Made by a program: the position numbers and the translations under genes. Source: Patescibacteria group bacterium (lineage in GTDB: Bacteria; Patescibacteriota; Microgenomatia; Daviesbacterales; UBA10151). Taken from it: 64,000 nt of DNA. Of this stretch, positions 2,539-64,000 are shown one piece after another. The notes under the pieces are model-generated. The model saw only the letters and a program-made list of their open reading frames with translations, was not told the DNA's origin and did not search any database. Each line of letters begins with the position of its first letter. Position 1 is the stretch's first letter. Location of the stretch: the NCBI GenBank assembly GCA_943356485.1, contig CALRFD010000003.1:7702-71701 (forward strand), given 5' to 3'.

Positions 2539-4461
2539 ATGTTTAAGAAGCTGTTTCATATTACCTTATCGATTTTATTTCTGCTGTTTAGTATAAATTG
2601 TACCCTGTCTAATAGCTTTGCTGCTGAAAACCTGTCAGCCGCCAAACAGGACTTTGGTACTTCTTATAACGTAACTTATGATGTGGGAGAAGATGGCGTA
2701 ACGACTGTTAGTGAAAAGATCACCTTAAAAAATTTAACCAGTCAGTATTACGCTTCTTCCTTTAAACTAATTATCGGCGCAACCCAAATTTCCGATATTA
2801 AAGCCTCAGATGATGGTGGTTTGATGGAGGTAAACTCAAAGCAGGAGAATAGTTCAACTGTCATTAACGTTAAGTTTAACCAGCAAGTTGTAGGTCTTGG
2901 AAAAAGCTTATCCTGGACTCTTCAATTTAAATCCAGGGATTTTGCTGAAAAGATCGGAAAGGTCTGGGAAGTAAGAGCACCAAAAGTTTCAACCTCTACA
3001 AATCTGGAAAGCTATAATTTAACAATTTCTGTTCCTTTGAGTTTTGGCGAACCTACTTTAATAAGCCCAATCCCCAGGAGTCAGGTAACTTCAAATGGAA
3101 AAGTGCTTTTAAGCTTTGAAAAACCGCAGCTGATCTCTTCAGGTGTCTCCGCGAATTTTGGAAATATACAACTTTTTAATTTTGATTTAGCCTACCATTT
3201 GGAAAATAATAATCTGGTATCAATTCTGACTAATATAGCTCTTCCTCCAGATACAGCTTTTCAGGATATTTTGTTCCAAAAAATCGACCCGAAGCCCCTT
3301 AATGTAACTTTGGATGATGATGGAAATTATTTAGCTTGGTATCGGCTTTCAAGAGGTCAAAGAGTTGATGTTAGGGTTCTTGGTTCCTCCAGGCTTTATA
3401 CAGATTCCAAGGTTAAAAACCCTGTCTTATCAGATAGCTTGAGAAAAAAATATACCCAGTCAGATAAATACTGGGAAAAAGATAATCCGGAGATCTCTGC
3501 AAAACTGGCTGAAATATTAGGAAATAACCCCAAGCTGGAACCTTTGAAAAAAGTGGAATTAATATACAGATATGTTGTAAATAATTTAAAGTATGATTCC
3601 ACCAGGCTTAATGATGATAATCTGGAAAGATTAGGGGCTGTAACGGTTTTAAACAATCCAACTCAGGCTGTATGTATGGAATTTAGCGACCTTTTTATAG
3701 CTCTTGCCAGGGCTGCTGGAATTCCTGCAAGGGAGCTTGACGGGTATGCTTATACTTCCAATTCCATACTTCGCCCGCTTTCTCTTTCAAAAGACATCCT
3801 GCATGCCTGGCCGCAGTATTGGGATGATAAAAAAGGGTGGATAATGGTTGATCCGACCTGGGAAAATACAACAGGTGGGGTGGACTATTTCTCAAAGTTT
3901 GACTTAAGCCATCTTGTTTTTGCAATTAAGGGATCTTCCTCTACTCAACCGATTGCCGCCGGTTCTTATAAGTATTTTGGAGTGGATTCAAAGGATGTAG
4001 CTGTGATGCTGTCAGATGTTGATTTTTTGGGTGGACCTAAGCTGGATGTTAACCTGGATATAGCCAACCCGCTTTTAGCCGGTTTTCCGGGTAAATTAAA
4101 GGTTACTGTTAGGAATACAGGTAATTCAGTACTTAGCTCAAGAGACCTTGTTCTAAAAAGCAGCAAGCTTTTAATTGTTGGGGGGGATAAACAAAGATTG
4201 GGTGATATTCCGGCTTTTGGTTCGGCCGCCTTCGATATAAATATAAGAACTAAATCACTTTTTGATTCATATAGCGATCAGATAATAGCTCAACTGGGAA
4301 CAGAAAAATTTATCAAGGATATAGCGATCAAGCCGTTTTTCGCTTTTGCAGTAGTTCCAATAATGATTGCTGCAATGATTTTTGCAATCAGCGCAATATA
4401 TCTGGCTGTATTAGGGTTTCATTTCTATCAGGCTAGGGGTAATAAAAAGAAGAATGGTTAA
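2539..4461 (+). CDS. Secreted/membrane-anchored transglutaminase-like (Cys-His-Asp) domain protein
   Basis: N-terminal signal peptide and C-terminal TM helix. Triad context QAVCMEFSDLF ... LHAWPQYW ... MVDPTWEN is typical of the transglutaminase-like superfamily. Confidence 0.6.
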   Translation: MFKKLFHITLSILFLLFSINCTLSNSFAAENLSAAKQDFGTSYNVTYDVGEDGVTTVSEKITLKNLTSQYYASSFKLIIGATQISDIKASDDGGLMEVNSKQENSSTVINVKFNQQVVGLGKSLSWTLQFKSRDFAEKIGKVWEVRAPKVSTSTNLESYNLTISVPLSFGEPTLISPIPRSQVTSNGKVLLSFEKPQLISSGVSANFGNIQLFNFDLAYHLENNNLVSILTNIALPPDTAFQDILFQKIDPKPLNVTLDDDGNYLAWYRLSRGQRVDVRVLGSSRLYTDSKVKNPVLSDSLRKKYTQSDKYWEKDNPEISAKLAEILGNNPKLEPLKKVELIYRYVVNNLKYDSTRLNDDNLERLGAVTVLNNPTQAVCMEFSDLFIALARAAGIPARELDGYAYTSNSILRPLSLSKDILHAWPQYWDDKKGWIMVDPTWENTTGGVDYFSKFDLSHLVFAIKGSSSTQPIAAGSYKYFGVDSKDVAVMLSDVDFLGGPKLDVNLDIANPLLAGFPGKLKVTVRNTGNSVLSSRDLVLKSSKLLIVGGDKQRLGDIPAFGSAAFDINIRTKSLFDSYSDQIIAQLGTEKFIKDIAIKPFFAFAVVPIMIAAMIFAISAIYLAVLGFHFYQARGNKKKNG

Positions 4462-7785: not shown

Positions 7786-7824
7786 CAACCCCAGGGGTTG
7801 ATTACCTTCAAACCCCGGGATTTT
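7786..7824. repeat. REP-like palindromes, family 1 (CAACCCCAGGGGTTG plus adjacent AAACCCCGGGATTT)
   Basis: Imperfect palindromes read directly. A third related copy sits at 17906-17924. Confidence 0.6.
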
Positions 7825-7862
7825 ATCTTGTAAAATTCTGGATTAAACTATAATATGAAAAT

Positions 7863-8534
7863 ATGCCCTACAGAAAAACTGCCATTGTTTCTGGCGAGGT
7901 ATATCATATTTTTAATAGAGGAATAGCCGGGGCACCAATATTTTCAACTACTAAAGATTTCTTGCGCTTCCTAGACTTAATAAATTATTACCGTTTTAGA
8001 GATACCCCGGTAAGTTTTTCCCAATTTAAAAAGATAAAGAAAGAGGATAGAGAAAAAATTTTAAGCAATTTAGTGAAAGAAAATAACCCGCAAATAGAAA
8101 TATTAGCATTTTGTTTAATGGATAATCACTTTCATTTTCTTTTAAAACAAATTCTAGATAAGGGGATAGCCAAATTTGTCAGCAATTTACAAAATGGCTA
8201 TGCTAAATATTTTAATGTAAAAACTGAAAGGTATGGACCATTATTTCAGCCCATGTTTAAATCTGTAAGAGTTGTAAAAAACGAGCAACTTCTTCATGTT
8301 TCAAGATACATACATTTAAATCCATCTACAGGTTATTTAGTAGAAATAAAAGATTTAGAAGAATACCCTTGGACATCGCTATCCAGTTATCTTAAAGAAA
8401 ACTTAGAATATCCTTTTGTAAGTACGGAATTTATCCTGGAATTTATGAGTAGAAAGAAGTATAAAGAATTTATATATGATCAGGCAGAGTATCAAAGGGA
8501 GTTGGCAAATATTAGACATCTGACCTTTGAATAA
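7863..8534 (+). CDS. RayT-like HUH tyrosine transposase (IS200/IS605 TnpA superfamily, REP-associated), paralog 1
   Basis: HUH motif MDNHFHFLL, conserved N-terminus YHIFNRG, C-terminal VSRYIHLNPSTGY catalytic-Tyr region. 223 aa. About 45% identical by eye to the 41193-41858 paralog. Confidence 0.8.
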   Translation: MPYRKTAIVSGEVYHIFNRGIAGAPIFSTTKDFLRFLDLINYYRFRDTPVSFSQFKKIKKEDREKILSNLVKENNPQIEILAFCLMDNHFHFLLKQILDKGIAKFVSNLQNGYAKYFNVKTERYGPLFQPMFKSVRVVKNEQLLHVSRYIHLNPSTGYLVEIKDLEEYPWTSLSSYLKENLEYPFVSTEFILEFMSRKKYKEFIYDQAEYQRELANIRHLTFE

Positions 8535-8550
8535 AAAAGATTCATTTCCT

Positions 8551-8584
8551 TGGGTTGGAAGCTATTTAACCCCTGGGGTTAATG
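8551..8584. repeat. REP family 1 copy, inverted relative to the 7787 copy (AAGCTATTTAACCCCTGGGGTTAATG)
   Basis: It is the reverse complement of the core of the upstream copy. It shares the 22-bp block AAGCTATTYAACCCCTGGGGTT with 17903-17924. Confidence 0.6.
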
Positions 8585-10634: not shown

Positions 10635-10779
10635 ACTTTAAGAATATCACATAATATGTAAGTGTTCTTTCAGGGTTTTGCGTAAGTCAAAATCGGTGGT
10701 AAACTCCACGACCAGCCTTTGGCTGGATGAGCCGGTGTAACTCCGGCAGCGACCGTATAGTCGGGATGAAAGGAAGAAT

Positions 10780-11700
10780 ATGAAAAAACTAATATCCTTT
10801 GGTCCGCTATTTGTTGCCTTAGCAGCTATAATTTGGAGTTTTGATGGTTTGCTAAGACGCAGTTTATACTCACTCCCACCTTCAGTAGTGGTTTTTTATG
10901 AGCATCTGATTGGTTTTGCCATTCTTTTATTATTTTTCCCAAAATGGTGGCCTGATTTAAAAAAACTGACTAAAAAAGAGTGGTTAGCCATCTCTTTAGT
11001 CGCGCTTTTTTCAGGAGCTTTGGGGACAATTTTTTATACTGCGGCTTTAGGAAGAGTAAATTATATTCAGTTTTCCGTTGTTGTTTTACTGCAACAGCTT
11101 CAGCCTATTTGGGCCATATCTGCCGCGGCCATCATACTTAAAGAACGAGTTAATAAGAGATTTATCCTTTGGGCAGGAATAGCTTTAGTTGCCGCATATT
11201 TTATAAACTTTAAAGACCTGAACGTAAATTTTCAAACAGGTACAGGGACAGCGGTAGCAGGAGGATTAGCTCTTCTGGCAGGAGTTTTATGGGGCTCCTC
11301 AACAGCGATTAGTAAGTATGTTTTAAACAAGGTTTCTTTTTTGACTGCCACAGCTTTGCGGTTTGCCCTGGCTCCTTTTTTTGCCCTGGGATTTATTTTC
11401 TCAATGGGGCAATCTGCCGCTATTTTTCAAATTACGCAAGCGCAAATATGGACACTTTTATTAATAGCTTTTTCAACCGGGATGGTAGCCTTAGCTATAT
11501 ATTATTATGGTTTAAAAAAGACTCCGGCCAGGATTACGACCCTTTGTGAGTTGGTTTGGCCAGCCTCCGCAGTCTTTATAGATTATGTCTATTTTCACCA
11601 AAGCTATTCAATAACCCAGATTTTAGGAATAGTAGTTTTGCTTTTTGTGCTTTATCAAGTAGCCTGGAAGAAAACAGAACTCATTGACAAAAGGGACTAA
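10780..11700 (+). CDS. EamA/DMT-family transporter (about 10 TM)
   Basis: Two repeated roughly 5-TM halves. Composition typical of EamA. Confidence 0.65.
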   Translation: MKKLISFGPLFVALAAIIWSFDGLLRRSLYSLPPSVVVFYEHLIGFAILLLFFPKWWPDLKKLTKKEWLAISLVALFSGALGTIFYTAALGRVNYIQFSVVVLLQQLQPIWAISAAAIILKERVNKRFILWAGIALVAAYFINFKDLNVNFQTGTGTAVAGGLALLAGVLWGSSTAISKYVLNKVSFLTATALRFALAPFFALGFIFSMGQSAAIFQITQAQIWTLLLIAFSTGMVALAIYYYGLKKTPARITTLCELVWPASAVFIDYVYFHQSYSITQILGIVVLLFVLYQVAWKKTELIDKRD

Positions 11701-17792: not shown

Positions 17793-17864
17793 GGGCCGGT
17801 AGCTCAGTGGTAGAGCAATGGACTCTTAATCCATTTGTCGTGGGTTCGACCCCCACCCGGCTCA
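17793..17864 (+). tRNA. tRNA-Lys (anticodon CTT)
   Basis: Cloverleaf: acceptor GGGCCGG/CCGGCTC, D-arm GCTC-AGTGGTA-GAGC, anticodon stem ATGGA/TCCAT with loop CTCTTAA, T-arm GTGGG-TTCGACC-CCCAC. CCA is not encoded. Confidence 0.85.
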
Positions 17865-17886
17865 CAAGACCTATAGTTTAGCCTCA

Positions 17887-17928
17887 CTCCTGGGGTTCAA
17901 AGCTATTCAACCCCTGGGGTTGGGAGTT
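17887..17928. repeat. REP family 1 copy with an upstream half-copy (CTCCTGGGGTTCAAAGCTATTCAACCCCTGGGGTTGGGAG)
   Basis: Shares AAGCTATTYAACCCCTGGGGTT with 8560-8583. Confidence 0.6.
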
Positions 17929-24348: not shown

Positions 24349-24400
24349 GTCTAATCTCCCCAGGTGACCTATATTCTACACCCCCCAGGTGAGCTTATTT
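24349..24400 (+). repeat. REP-like family 2 copy (TCTAATCTCCCCAGGTGACCTATATTCTACACCCCCCAGGTGAGCTTA)
   Basis: Matches 31362-31412 over 48 bp with 3 mismatches. The core is shared with 41864-41898 and, inverted, with 41138-41170. Confidence 0.7.
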
Positions 24401-31361: not shown

Positions 31362-31412
31362 GGGATCTAATCTCCCTAGGTGTCCTAAATTCTACACCCC
31401 CCAGGTGAGCTT
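31362..31412 (+). repeat. REP-like family 2 copy
   Basis: GGGATCTAATCTCCCTAGGTGTCCTAAATTCTACACCCCCCAGGTGAGCTTA. Confidence 0.7.
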
Positions 31413-31587
31413 ACAGGTGAGATTAGTCTTGCAAATGCCTTGCGGCCTCACAGGGCGATTTAGAACTTTTATACTGCCACAAAAGTTTTAGTCCAATACT
31501 CTGTATAGGCAGGCCACATAGGTAACACTTATGCCTAAACGTATATATGGCCTGGCTACATATAAAACAGTAAATTTTTGGAACGTC

Positions 31588-41137: not shown

Positions 41138-41170
41138 CACCTGGGGGGTGTATTAGCTTGACACCTAGGG
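41138..41170. repeat. REP-like family 2 copy, inverted orientation
   Basis: Reverse complement CCCTAGGTGTCAAGCTAATACACCCCCCAGGTG. Confidence 0.65.
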
Positions 41171-41192
41171 AATTTTGTTATATTTTTAATAT

Positions 41193-41858
41193 ATGCCAGG
41201 GAGATTACTACCCTTAGTTACGAATGAAATATACCATATCTACAATAGGGGGATTAACCGGCAACCGACTTTTACAAATAAAAGAGAATGTGATAGGGCT
41301 ATTGAGACTATAAAATTTTATAGATTTGCTGATTTACCCTTAAGATTATCCAAATTTCTTTTACTTGAACAGAAGAAACAAAAGGAAACCGCTGAAAGTT
41401 TAGCTAAATCACTAGTAGAGATTCTTGCTTTTTGTTTGATGCCAAATCATTTTCATTTTTTGCTTCGGCAACAAGAAGACGGCGGTATTGCCACATTTAT
41501 AGGTAAGTTTCTAAATAGCTACACTCGATATTTTAATACTGTAAATAAGAGGGATGGTTCTCTATTCCTTGACCAGTTTAAAGCTGTTAGGGTGGAAACT
41601 GATGAACAACTGGTTCATGTTTCAAGGTATATCCATTTAAATCCATACACAGGTTATGTTATTAAGACTCTTGATGAGCTTCAATTATATCGATATTCTT
41701 CATTTAAGGATTACATTGATAATGATGAAACATTTGTTACAACAGACTTGATTCTAGGACTTTTTAAGGATAAAAATTTGTATAAGCAATTTGTTCTCGA
41801 TCAGGCAGATTATCAAAGAAGATTAAAGGACATTGAGCATCTTGCACTAGAGGCATGA
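41193..41858 (+). CDS. RayT-like HUH tyrosine transposase, paralog 2
   Basis: YHIYNRG, HUH motif MPNHFHFLL, VSRYIHLNPYTGY. 221 aa. Confidence 0.8.
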   Translation: MPGRLLPLVTNEIYHIYNRGINRQPTFTNKRECDRAIETIKFYRFADLPLRLSKFLLLEQKKQKETAESLAKSLVEILAFCLMPNHFHFLLRQQEDGGIATFIGKFLNSYTRYFNTVNKRDGSLFLDQFKAVRVETDEQLVHVSRYIHLNPYTGYVIKTLDELQLYRYSSFKDYIDNDETFVTTDLILGLFKDKNLYKQFVLDQADYQRRLKDIEHLALEA

Positions 41859-41863
41859 TTTTC

Positions 41864-41898
41864 CCCTAGGTGACCTATATTCTACACCCCCCAGGTGT
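41864..41898 (+). repeat. REP-like family 2 copy
   Basis: CCCTAGGTGACCTATATTCTACACCCCCCAGGTG. Confidence 0.65.
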
Positions 41899-55246: not shown

Positions 55247-55428
55247 AGAAATTTGTTTATTTAATCTTACAGGGAAAACCTAGTCAATTGCTAGTCTCTG
55301 ATCAATATCTCTATATGGTTCCAGATTATTCATCCAGATATATAATATGCTGAATTAAAAAGATGTCAAACTATATGGTCTAATGGGTGGGCAGATGAGT
55401 TTTCCAGGTGTTGTGCTAGAATATAAAA

Positions 55429-56033: not shown

Positions 56034-56091
56034 GGGGTGGGTGGGCAGATTATAATCCTGAGCAGGGCCTAAGGACTTAGTTTGTACTCAG
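56034..56091 (+). repeat. Dispersed repeat, copy R2 (GGGGTGGGTGGGCAGATTATAATCCTGAGCAGGGCCTAAGGACTTAGTTTGTACTCAG)
   Basis: Near-identical to 57663-57720 and 58477-58535. Confidence 0.8.
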
Positions 56092-57662: not shown

Positions 57663-57720
57663 GGGGTGGGTGGGCTGATTATAATCCTGAGCAGGGCCGA
57701 AGGACTTAGTTTGTACTCAG
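57663..57720 (+). repeat. Dispersed repeat, copy R4
   Basis: GGGGGTGGGTGGGCTGATTATAATCCTGAGCAGGGCCGAAGGACTTAGTTTGTACTCAG. Confidence 0.8.
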
Positions 57721-58339: not shown

Positions 58340-58397
58340 AGCGAGGCCAGTTATTCAAGTAGTTTATTGCTAAACTCGGCGGCTCACCGTCCTTTGT

Positions 58398-58535
58398 CCC
58401 CGATAACTTGTTGTAAATGTATTATACCACAACTTGTATCAAAAACTCATCTCTAAATCAGAATACGTAATTTTGCGTGGGTGGGTGGGCAGATTATAAT
58501 CCTGAGCAGGGCCGAAGGACTTAGTTTGTACCCAG
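58398..58535 (+). repeat. Dispersed repeat, copy R5 (full length, about 138 bp)
   Basis: Combines the 5' arm shared with R3 and the core shared with R2 and R4. Confidence 0.8.
58473..58500 (+). promoter_or_regulatory. Sigma70-like promoter inside repeat R5: TTGCGT, 16-nt spacer, TATAAT
   Basis: Read directly. It faces rightward into the 3' end of the minus-strand gene 58545-59075, so it could make an antisense or small RNA. Confidence 0.3.
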
Positions 58536-62562: not shown

Positions 62563-62604
62563 CTCTTGCTTTTTGGGTTTCCTTCGGATAATAATATACA
62601 TACC

Positions 62605-62644
62605 TTTGTCATCTAGAGATTGCCACGCTTCGCTCGCAATGACA
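62605..62644. repeat. Truncated copy of the MITE-like palindromic element found inside dinB
   Basis: TTTGTCAT-CTAGAGATTGCCACGCTTCGCTCGCAATGACA aligns to both ends of 63226-63306, with about 40 bp of internal sequence missing. Confidence 0.6.
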
Positions 62645-62894: not shown

Positions 62895-64000
62895 GAGCAA
62901 TATTACATATAGACTTTAATTCATACTTTGCCAGTGTTGAACAGCAGGCTAATCCTCGTTTACGGGGTAAACCGATTGGAGTAACAGGCGGTGACAGAAT
63001 AAAAAGAACTGTTATCGGTGCAGCTTCAATTGAGGCTAAAAGGTTTGGAGTTAAAACAGGGATGGCGATTTGGCAGGCAAAAAAACTTTGTCCGCAAATA
63101 ATACTTGTGAAAGGTGATAGCGATAAATATTTAGAGACCACCAAAAAGTTTTTATCAATTGTAAAAAGCTTTAGCCCGATTGTTGAGGTATTTTCGATTG
63201 ATGAAGTTTTTTTACAACTTCCTTTTGTCATTCCGAGGGAGCGAAGCGACCGTAGGAATCCTGATTCTAATCTAGATTGCCACGCTCCTTCGGAGCTCGC
63301 AATGACGTTAAAAATTGCTCAGGAGATCAAATCCCGTGTCCGTTCTGAACTTGGTGAATATATTAAATGTTCTATTGGTATTTCCTACAATAAATTAATG
63401 GCAAAGCTGGCCGGATCTTTGCAAAAGCCGGACGGGTTAGTGGTTATTGCAGATCAGGAGGAAGCTATAAAAGTACTGGATAAAATAGAGCTGGATGAGA
63501 TCTGTGGGATAGGTCGTGCGATCAAGAAAAGGTTAAATAATATGGGGGTGTTTAATTTTAAAGATTTGCGGAAAACTCCTCTGGAGGCACTGCTGGCTTC
63601 TTTTAAATCTTACGGCAAAACTCTTTATGATATGGCAAGAGGAATAGACGAACGACCGATTTTACCTTTTTTTGAAAAACCAGAGGTAAAATCAATTGGC
63701 CACAGACATACGATTGACTACGATACTTCTGATCCAACTGAAATAAAACAAATTTTACTTAAATTAACAGAGTTAATTGCCAGAAAGTTAAGAGCTAAAA
63801 AATTAGTTGGCAAAACAATTTCTTGCTGGTTTCGTCGAGTTCGAGGTGCGACCTCAACGAAGGTCGCACCTGAACAGATGGGAATGCAGGTTACGATTTT
63901 CCCGACCCAAGATGGGTTGGAAATTTTTAAATCTGCATGGAAAGTTTTCAATTATTTATGGGATGGAGAAAGAATAAGGATGGTTGGCGTTTCTATTTCT
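62893..64000 (+). CDS. dinB: DNA polymerase IV (Y-family), 3'-truncated by the window edge; absent from the ORF track because no stop lies in the window
   Basis: My translation from the GTG at 62893 gives VRAILHIDFNSYFASVEQQANPRLRGKPIGVTGG ... SIDEVFLQL ... IAQEIKSRVRSELG ... KLMAKLAGSLQKPDGLVVI, which are canonical DinB palm and finger motifs. The frame is open to position 64000. Confidence 0.85.
63227..63306. mobile_element. About 80-bp MITE-like palindromic element inserted in-frame within dinB
   Basis: Terminal inverted repeats GTCATTCCGAGGGAGCG ... CGCTCCTTCGGAGCTCGCAATGAC. The encoded segment PFVIPRERSDRRNPDSNLDCHAPSELAMT sits where DinB normally has a short loop between the DEVFLQL and IAQEI motifs. 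Confidence 0.5.

Follow-up and report, generated by a model that had tools for sequence, protein, structure and literature searches.

The window analyzed here is a 64-kb stretch of contig k141_195454 (ENA) from a Daviesbacteria-like Patescibacteria (candidate phyla radiation, CPR) genome that is probably under 1 Mb in size. Together with flanks of 2.1 kb upstream and 8 kb downstream, 74.1 kb of this contig was examined, and the repeat numbers given for the host refer to this length. The window contains two genes predicted to encode RayT-like Y1-HUH enzymes, copy 1 and copy 2, each bracketed by inverted repeats of its own (families 1 and 2). A third paralog, flanked by a third repeat family, lies upstream of the window, and the three paralogous units fall within about 45 kb. 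RayT enzymes and their REP sequences (repetitive extragenic palindromes) offer a textbook case of transposase domestication and, to our knowledge, have hardly been studied outside Proteobacteria and Cyanobacteria. We consider it likely that the contig carries three units of the TIRtron/REPtron type, in each of which a RayT-like gene and its cognate inverted repeats of about 34 bp form a discrete element of about 760 to 800 bp. The features concerned, in window coordinates, are as follows.

7787-7819, plus strand: family-1 left end of copy 1, consisting of AACCCCAGGGGTT (7787-7799), an 11-nt spacer and the half-site AACCCCGGG (7811-7819)
7863-8534, plus strand: copy 1, open reading frame (ORF) for a Y1-HUH protein of 223 aa; Pfam Y1_Tnp, 36.5 bits; NHFH at residues 88-91
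8548-8580, minus strand: right end of copy 1 (family 1), in inverted orientation to the left end, consisting of the half-site CCTTGGGTT (8548-8556), a spacer and the palindrome AACCCCTGGGGTT (8568-8580)
17889-17921, minus strand: solo family-1 unit, CCTGGGGTT-N11-AACCCCTGGGGTT, in right-end orientation
24358-24391, minus strand: solo family-2 unit, 151 nt downstream of purD
31374-31430, minus strand: solo family-2 unit (31374-31407) followed by part of a second half-site in inverted orientation, CAGGTGAGATTAG; the flanking genes diverge
41138-41170, plus strand: family-2 left end of copy 2, consisting of CACCTGGGGGGTGT, a 10-nt spacer and CACCTAGGG
41158-41186, plus strand: promoter-like site, TTGACA-17-TATTTT, 10/12 matches
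41193-41858, plus strand: copy 2, ORF for a Y1-HUH protein of 221 aa; Pfam Y1_Tnp, 36.8 bits
41864-41897, minus strand: family-2 right end of copy 2, CCCTAGGTG-N11-ACACCCCCCAGGTG, 5 nt past the stop codon
63844-63871, no strand assigned: solo family-3 palindrome, AGGTGCGACC-tcaacgaa-GGTCGCACCT, in frame within a dinB-like ORF; matches the unit of the third paralog

The initial annotation had placed two Y1-HUH ORFs, their bracketing inverted repeats and the solo copies. Both ORFs exist and score above the 23-bit Pfam threshold for Y1_Tnp (PF01797), and all of the repeat coordinates were accurate. The extra family-1 copy that it had set beside a tRNA-Lys gene does adjoin tRNA-Lys (17793-17865), lying 23 nt 3' of it, and the spacer of this copy resembles that of the copy-1 right end (ATAGCTT).

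Measured from repeat to repeat, the copy-1 unit spans 794 bp (7787-8580) and the copy-2 unit spans 760 bp (41138-41897); the gene is the sole content of each. The outer edge of the copy-1 left end lies 16 nt past the stop codon of an SBP_bac_5 gene and its inner edge 43 nt 5' of the ATG, and the first nucleotide of the right end lies 13 nt after the stop codon. The copy-2 unit is oriented opposite to the surrounding genes. In its left end, TTGACA falls at the junction of spacer and half-site; the -35 box of the promoter-like site is within the repeat, and the -10 box ends 6 nt 5' of the ATG. At the right end, the palindrome and a T-run together score as a terminator-like site. The third Y1 gene, coding for 225 aa, is located 1.0 to 1.7 kb upstream of window position 1 (L001:429-1106, minus strand), and its flanks (L001:392-419 and 1125-1150) carry a strong palindrome, GGTCGCACCT-tgactg-AGGTGCGACC, plus a related unit downstream.

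Predicted family and fold of the proteins

Copies 1 and 2 are 45% identical over their full length and the third paralog is 36% identical to copy 1, which places the three at 36 to 45% mutual identity; no near-identical paralog copies were found in the 74 kb examined. Copy 1 contains the motifs NHFH, LFQ, YIHLNP and YPWTSLS, with the catalytic-type Tyr within RYIHLNP at 148-154 and a WTS/WSS motif in the tail, and copy 2 contains NHFH, LFL, YIHLNP and YRYSSF. Protein alignments of 13 and 32 sequences were made, and the invariant columns include N88, H89 and H91 of the HUH motif and S147-RYIHLNP-154. In an NCBIfam search, REP_Tyr_transpos (NF047646) was the sole model matched, at 39.4 and 46.5 bits; these scores are below the equivalog cut-off of 80 bits, which was compared with the two window proteins only. 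All 32 of the aligned family members matched this model (best E value, 7.8e-14), and a single member touched the IS200 model NF033573, marginally (E value, 0.007).

An AlphaFold model built on the 32-sequence alignment (pLDDT 88.4, pTM 0.86) is predicted to have short helices and one long terminal helix. When this model was compared with the PDB by Foldseek, the top match was Escherichia coli TnpAREP with its REP hairpin (4ER8_A; E value, 2e-6; target-normalized TM-score, 0.72), followed by the ISDra2 and IS608 TnpA proteins. A single-sequence search of the PDB found nothing. No tnpB was present near the copies, whose neighbors are SBP_bac_5, a 138-aa ORF, a HlyD-type membrane fusion protein (MFP) and NAGPA. 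The motifs and the modeled fold thus support the earlier proposal that the proteins are RayT-like Y1-HUH enzymes other than ordinary IS200 TnpA.

Within the Y1 enzymes, Y---NP is the signature of class 2, the TnpAREP-like class (PMC6006769, Table 1). Subclass 2.1 is defined there by NH[YF]H, FQ (replacing W[EQ]), Y[IV]HLNP, a length of about 238 aa and a Ser-containing tail (PMC6006769, Table 1), and the same paper equates it with RAYT group 1 (PMC5581495) and with TIRYT/TIRtron (PMC3733652). The present units share with TIRYT/TIRtrons RayT-like Y1-HUH genes of about 220 to 240 aa with NH[YF]H, FQ, Y[IV]HLNP and a Ser-containing tail. By these features, the copies appear to fit TnpAY1 subclass 2.1 better than they fit canonical REP-RayT.

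Architecture of the flanking repeats

Each unit of families 1 and 2 is composed of an outer palindrome, a spacer of 10 to 11 nt and an inner copy of the first arm of the palindrome. Equivalently, a unit can be viewed as two direct 9-mers placed 24 to 25 bp apart, one of which is extended to a palindrome. Read from the outside toward the gene, family 1 is AACCCC(A)GGGGTT, 11 nt and AACCC(C)RGG, and family 2 is CACCTGGGGGGTGT, 10 to 11 nt and CACCTRGGG; family 1 is bipartite like family 2, in the form CCYGGGGTT-N11-AACCCCTGGGGTT. The initial annotation described these two families as unrelated. With the palindrome, the 10- to 11-nt spacer and the inner half-site common to both, they are variations of one architecture. 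As single-stranded DNA, a family-1 or family-2 unit can form two competing small hairpins, made either by the palindrome or by its second arm with the inner half-site.

The core sequences are far more frequent in the window than expected. The 64 kb contain exactly three copies of the family-1 palindrome AACCCCWGGGGTT (7787, 8568 and 17909; expected, 0.07) and exactly four of the family-2 sequence ACACCCCCCAGGTG (41138 on the minus strand, 41884, 24378 and 31394; expected, 0.11); neither count was reached in any of 100 shuffles. A de novo census of 12-mers and a generic scan for a palindrome, spacer and repeated arm brought up no other such families in the window. The generic scan with 5-nt arms missed family 2, because its stem is only 4 to 5 bp long. 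Searches of the window allowing up to three mismatches gave no convincing degenerate copies, and direct reading of the sequence found neither GTAG nor GTGG adjoining the three palindromes.

At least 1,750 database proteins are homologous to these enzymes at an E value of ≤0.001. The named homologs belong to Daviesbacteria, Levybacteria or "Patescibacteria group," and their annotation is merely "transposase" or "hypothetical." Homologous loci were collected (80 from metagenomes and several from genomes), of which 77 had both flanks. For each, the 160-nt upstream flank was aligned to the reverse-complemented 160-nt downstream flank and scored against shuffled sequences, and a flanking inverted repeat was detected at 54 of the 77 loci (z ≥ 5). 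At the median, its inner edge was 24.5 nt from the start codon on the upstream side and 5 nt from the stop codon on the downstream side. Among relatives of copies 1 and 2, the three-part build recurs with other arms (CCACCTTAGAGGTGG...CACCT, CAACACCGGGTGTTG...AACATCGGG and TACACCTCCGAGGTGTA...CACCTCGG), and the ends of relatives of the third paralog are simple strong palindromes, for example, GAGGTCGGACCTC. Protein similarity and upstream-repeat similarity were correlated (Spearman coefficient, 0.44; reached in 0 of 500 permutations), and therefore each lineage keeps its own cognate ends. TTGACA was found in the upstream flank at 25 of the 77 loci versus 2 of the 77 in the mirrored downstream flank.

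Presence and absence of whole units and distribution of solo copies

Orthologs of copy 1 are present at loci L110 (78% identity) and L111 (69% identity). Both sit after the same block of genes as copy 1 (Transglut_core, UvrC, holin-like, SecG and SBP_bac_5), and both retain the identical palindrome AACCCCWGGGGTT as well as the left-end unit; L111 contains a further solo family-1 unit at 11077, 4.4 kb off. At L114 and L115, where SBP_bac_5 is 69% and 65% identical to that of the window, no copy-1 unit and no remnant of one was found at this place. A synteny breakpoint at copy 1 was considered and dismissed, since the downstream FMN riboswitch, EamA and BipA genes form a syntenic region with local insertions and deletions. 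The FMN riboswitch (Rfam RF00050, 89.5 bits; 10662-10781) is directly 5' of an EamA-family transporter gene (10780-11700), and in relatives it heads either that transporter or the riboflavin operon.

Copy 2 also has empty counterparts. At L112 and L113, where NAGPA is 69 to 74% identical, the MFP-ABC-FtsX genes come directly after NAGPA with a spacer of 22 or 68 nt. The NAGPA-MFP spacer of the window is 823 nt long and consists of the 760-nt copy-2 unit and 8 and 55 nt of other sequence. Comparison of the occupied site with these two empty sites revealed no evident target duplication. Since relatives have empty sites for both copies, the whole unit is a discrete insertion/deletion element. The initial annotation pictured domesticated genes; with its repeats and gene occurring or missing together as one block, the unit is more like an insertion sequence (IS) or TIRtron than such a fixed gene. 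Once placed, a unit can be inherited vertically over the long term with its ends conserved.

In three other genomes, relatives of copy 2 (61 to 64% identical) lie directly upstream of ruvC with nearly identical family-2 ends, and at L016 and L024, the two loci with a readable upstream side, they are also downstream of yebC. The contigs of L024 (CAZFZP010000046.1) and L023 (CAYNFQ010000007.1) are labeled as metagenome-assembled genomes (MAGs) of "uncultured Gammaproteobacteria" and yet carry the copy-2 ortholog with family-2 ends. The yebC and ruvC genes of L024, and the ruvC gene of L023, closely match a complete Daviesbacteria chromosome, and these bins are probably mis-assigned or contaminated.

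Dispersal of solo units is real but modest. In the 74.1 kb, family 1 has two flanking units and one solo unit, family 2 has two and two, and family 3 has two and one. The spacer of the solo unit at 24358-24391, ACCTATATTCT, is identical to that of the copy-2 right end. Only three exact family-2 units are present in the complete 820-kb Daviesbacteria chromosome CP066688.1; its copy-2 ortholog has one of them upstream, and the other two lie inside long ORFs. A scan of contigs for family-2 units matched relatives and, by chance, GC-rich Mycolicibacter sequences. Among 33 other loci (152 kb in total), an extra copy of a locus's own core was seen in only three or four, and no REPIN-type inverted doublets were seen save one partial case. 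The idea that solo copies are all of the right-end type, as a clue to mechanism, was dismissed because CP066688 has a left-end-type solo copy (L025).

Some solo copies are intragenic. Three family-2 units (L014:6853-6886 and L025:6125-6158, both from CP066688.1, and L009:2147-2180) lie in long ORFs of other Daviesbacteria genomes (406, 564 and 561 aa, respectively) and share one reading frame, ..LG..(L/I)GHPPG.Q. REPs, too, are known to occur in frame within genes (PMC3733652). In a distant homolog (L107/L108; ORF 2968-3642), the flanking palindrome of the gene itself, CCTGCAGGGCC.GGCCCTGCAGG, occurs twice in the coding sequence (3117-3139 and 3424-3446), a situation like that reported for subclass 2.4, where REPs are inserted in tnpAREP genes. 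The solo family-3 palindrome of the window falls in the little-finger region of the dinB-like (DNA polymerase IV) ORF. Relative to E. coli DinB, this segment may be some 6 to 8 residues longer; an alignment to PDB 7yll showed no extra length at the palindrome, which is therefore only a possible net insertion. The same ORF contains a different, strongly palindromic element of about 75 nt in frame (63233-63307; GTCATTCCGAGGGAGCGAAGCGAC...GAGCTCGCAATGAC); compared with the PDB DinB structure 7yll, the PRERSDRRNPDSNLDCHAPSELAMT that it encodes is an insertion of about 22 aa. A shortened relative of this element is located in the upstream intergenic region (62604-62643).

The family-2 repeats had also been proposed to flank an inserted module. 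The stretch from 24.3 to 31.4 kb contains genes for VWA and AAA_5 (MoxR-like) proteins as well as two small ORFs. No positive evidence for an insert emerged: the two solo units (24358 and 31374) are oriented as direct repeats, each of the right-end type, and the G+C content is ordinary. In another Patescibacteria genome (L008), a cluster downstream of purD (3720-3800) combines a family-1-like unit with a symmetric family-2 unit, and other genes lie beyond. Because L008 and the window both have units just after purD, the spacer downstream of purD seems to be a recurrent site, which is no proof that the 7-kb stretch is an insert.

A separate 53-nt repeat, GGGTGGGTGGGC(A/T)GATTATAATCCTGAGCAGGGCC(T/G)AAGGACTTAGTTTGTAC, was observed at 56035-56087, 57664-57716 and 58479-58531, with a partial copy at 55384-55396. 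It holds a TATAAT box and lies upstream of NYN-domain and DUF3800 genes, and an Rfam DUF3800-II RNA match is present at 58345-58414 on the minus strand. This repeat may be a shared promoter/leader or RNA motif of that neighborhood.

Competing explanations and biological meaning

The reading that we favor, a discrete unit of the TIRtron/REPtron type, places the three genes closest to the most IS-like group of RAYTs. A TIRYT is a RayT-like gene flanked by terminal inverted repeats (TIRs) and not by GTAG REPs, and its dispersed repeat families are small or moderate (PMC3733652); the present units share the terminal inverted repeats in place of GTAG REPs and, in the sequence examined, the small or moderate families. 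They are likewise alike in having several gene/repeat pairs per genome, of which Koribacter versatilis has three. That a single genome can hold more than one RayT/REP or TIRYT/TIR pair is already documented (PMC6006769, PMC3733652). Unlike the known TIRtrons, the present repeats have a regular three-part build and reside in a small Patescibacteria host; non-IS TnpAY1 genes have been reported to be enriched in large genomes (PMC6006769).

By analogy with E. coli TnpAREP and IS608 TnpA, the enzyme would recognize its own ends, probably as alternative small hairpins on single-stranded DNA, and would cut and rejoin at putative cleavage sites in these ends by means of its HUH motif and tyrosine; the single-stranded cut-and-paste transposition of IS608 and ISDra2 is the model for this chemistry. 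If the enzyme is still active today, such cutting and rejoining would move or excise the unit and would occasionally seed solo copies of an end, either between genes or in frame within them. In the copy-2 lineage, the left end would double as a promoter by supplying the -35 box, and binding of the protein to its end would therefore be expected to autoregulate expression.

Several results weigh against this reading. The placement in subclass 2.1 is based on motifs and length, not phylogeny. A profile search of the PDB gave only very weak matches, at an E value of about 0.05, to ISDra2. Neither protein has a Pfam-detectable C-terminal helix-turn-helix (HTH) domain (Bac_DnaA_C, HTH_23 or HTH_28 at an E value of ≤0.1), unlike TIRYT/TIRtron proteins; subgroup 2.1.2 is heterogeneous as to a C-terminal HTH-type domain (PMC6006769). 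The GGGGWSAS motif, found in many but not all TIRYT repeat families (PMC3733652), is absent: the sequence is GGGGTTGA in family 1 and GGGGGGTGT in family 2, and a G-run is lacking in family 3. The palindrome stems of families 1 and 2 are short (4 to 7 bp), and their predicted hairpins are weak (-3 to -8 kcal/mol; z, -0.4 to -2.7 versus shuffled controls); because of this weakness, recognition of a double-stranded inverted repeat is as plausible as recognition of a hairpin. Finally, presence and absence of the unit could reflect precise loss, not insertion.

Among the other explanations, the best supported is that these are canonical domesticated REP-RayT genes (TnpAY1 subclasses 2.2 and 2.5), that is, immobile single-copy host genes that disperse and maintain large REP/REPIN populations, as exemplified by TnpAREP (4ER8) and Pseudomonas fluorescens SBW25. 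The closest match is RayT both among NCBIfam models and among solved structures, the class-2 Y---NP signature is shared, and inverted cognate palindromes flank the gene (a "REPtron"), with one repeat family per paralog and co-variation of repeat and protein. Copy 1 is syntenic in three genomes with its ends conserved, the paralogs have diverged without near-identical copies in the 74 kb, and solo units exist, some of them intragenic, as in REPs. These likenesses are set against an identity of 15% to 4ER8, scores well under the equivalog cut-off, the lack of a GT[AG]G guide at the foot of the palindromes and, in two of the three families, stems that are very short. Large repeat populations were likewise not seen: four solo units over three families occur in 74 kb, three exact family-2 units occur in the 820-kb relative and few extra copies occur in the 33 other loci, with no REPIN doublet populations beyond the one partial case. 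In addition, gene and ends form an insertable block, and whole units are present or absent as such. Of the earlier claim of cognate REP-RayT systems, the part that stands is that each paralog has its own flanking repeats with few solo copies; the equivalog-level score and the GT[AG]G foot of canonical REP-RayT are lacking. We regard this explanation as unlikely.

It is less probable still that the repeats are mainly double-stranded regulatory sites (operator/promoter and terminator) bound by the extra C-terminal region of the protein, with no DNA breakage or joining today and with solo copies representing further binding sites or relics. The -35 box in the left end, the conserved TTGACA asymmetry between the two flanks, the terminator-like score of the right end, the two direct 9-mers in each unit and the weak single-stranded hairpins of families 1 and 2 are all in keeping with such sites. 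However, the invariance of the HUH motif and tyrosine across the family argues for retained catalysis, the block presence/absence of units and the in-frame intragenic solo copies require a DNA-moving activity at some time, and the hairpins of the third family are strong (-13 to -16 kcal/mol; z, -5 to -6).

Ordinary tnpA-only IS200/IS605 insertion sequences (TnpAY1 subclass 1.1), the subterminal hairpins of which merely resemble inverted repeats, would account for the Pfam Y1_Tnp matches, the Y1-HUH fold, the small bounded single-gene elements with structured ends, their presence or absence as blocks and the lack of an obvious target-site duplication, but this explanation is very improbable and is largely refuted by the tyrosine motif (Y---NP, not Y---Q) and HUH motif (NHFH, not DH[VI]H), the length of 221 to 225 aa versus about 150 aa for IS200 TnpA (about 70 extra C-terminal residues), the single marginal match to the IS200 model, the lack of tnpB, ends that are true inverted repeats and not same-strand left and right hairpins, the lack of multiple near-identical copies in the 74 kb and the long-term synteny of copy 1, with orthologs at 69 to 78% protein identity.

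In the literature searched, no substantive link of REP or RayT with the candidate phyla radiation was found. What is new here is the Patescibacteria setting, the three-part ends with an embedded promoter box, the presence of three classes in one small genome and the pairs of occupied and empty sites. A broader and more tentative proposal is that Patescibacteria, at least Daviesbacteria/Levybacteria/Microgenomates, may harbor a large lineage-specific radiation of minimal, still-mobile Y1-HUH elements of about 760 to 800 bp that stand between IS200-type insertion sequences and domesticated RayT. Such elements might consist of one gene with a left-end promoter and bipartite ends with two alternative hairpins, and in genomes of <1 Mb several specificity classes might exist side by side and give rise to in-frame peptide insertions in the proteins of the host.

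Three specificity classes, conserved ends and occupied and empty sites make these units a tractable system for end recognition by a Y1 enzyme. The same system allows one to ask how a mobile IS-like unit becomes a resident gene with satellite repeats. For the genomes that carry them, the short repeats mark insertion/deletion differences between relatives and cause in-frame peptide insertions in MAG-derived proteins.

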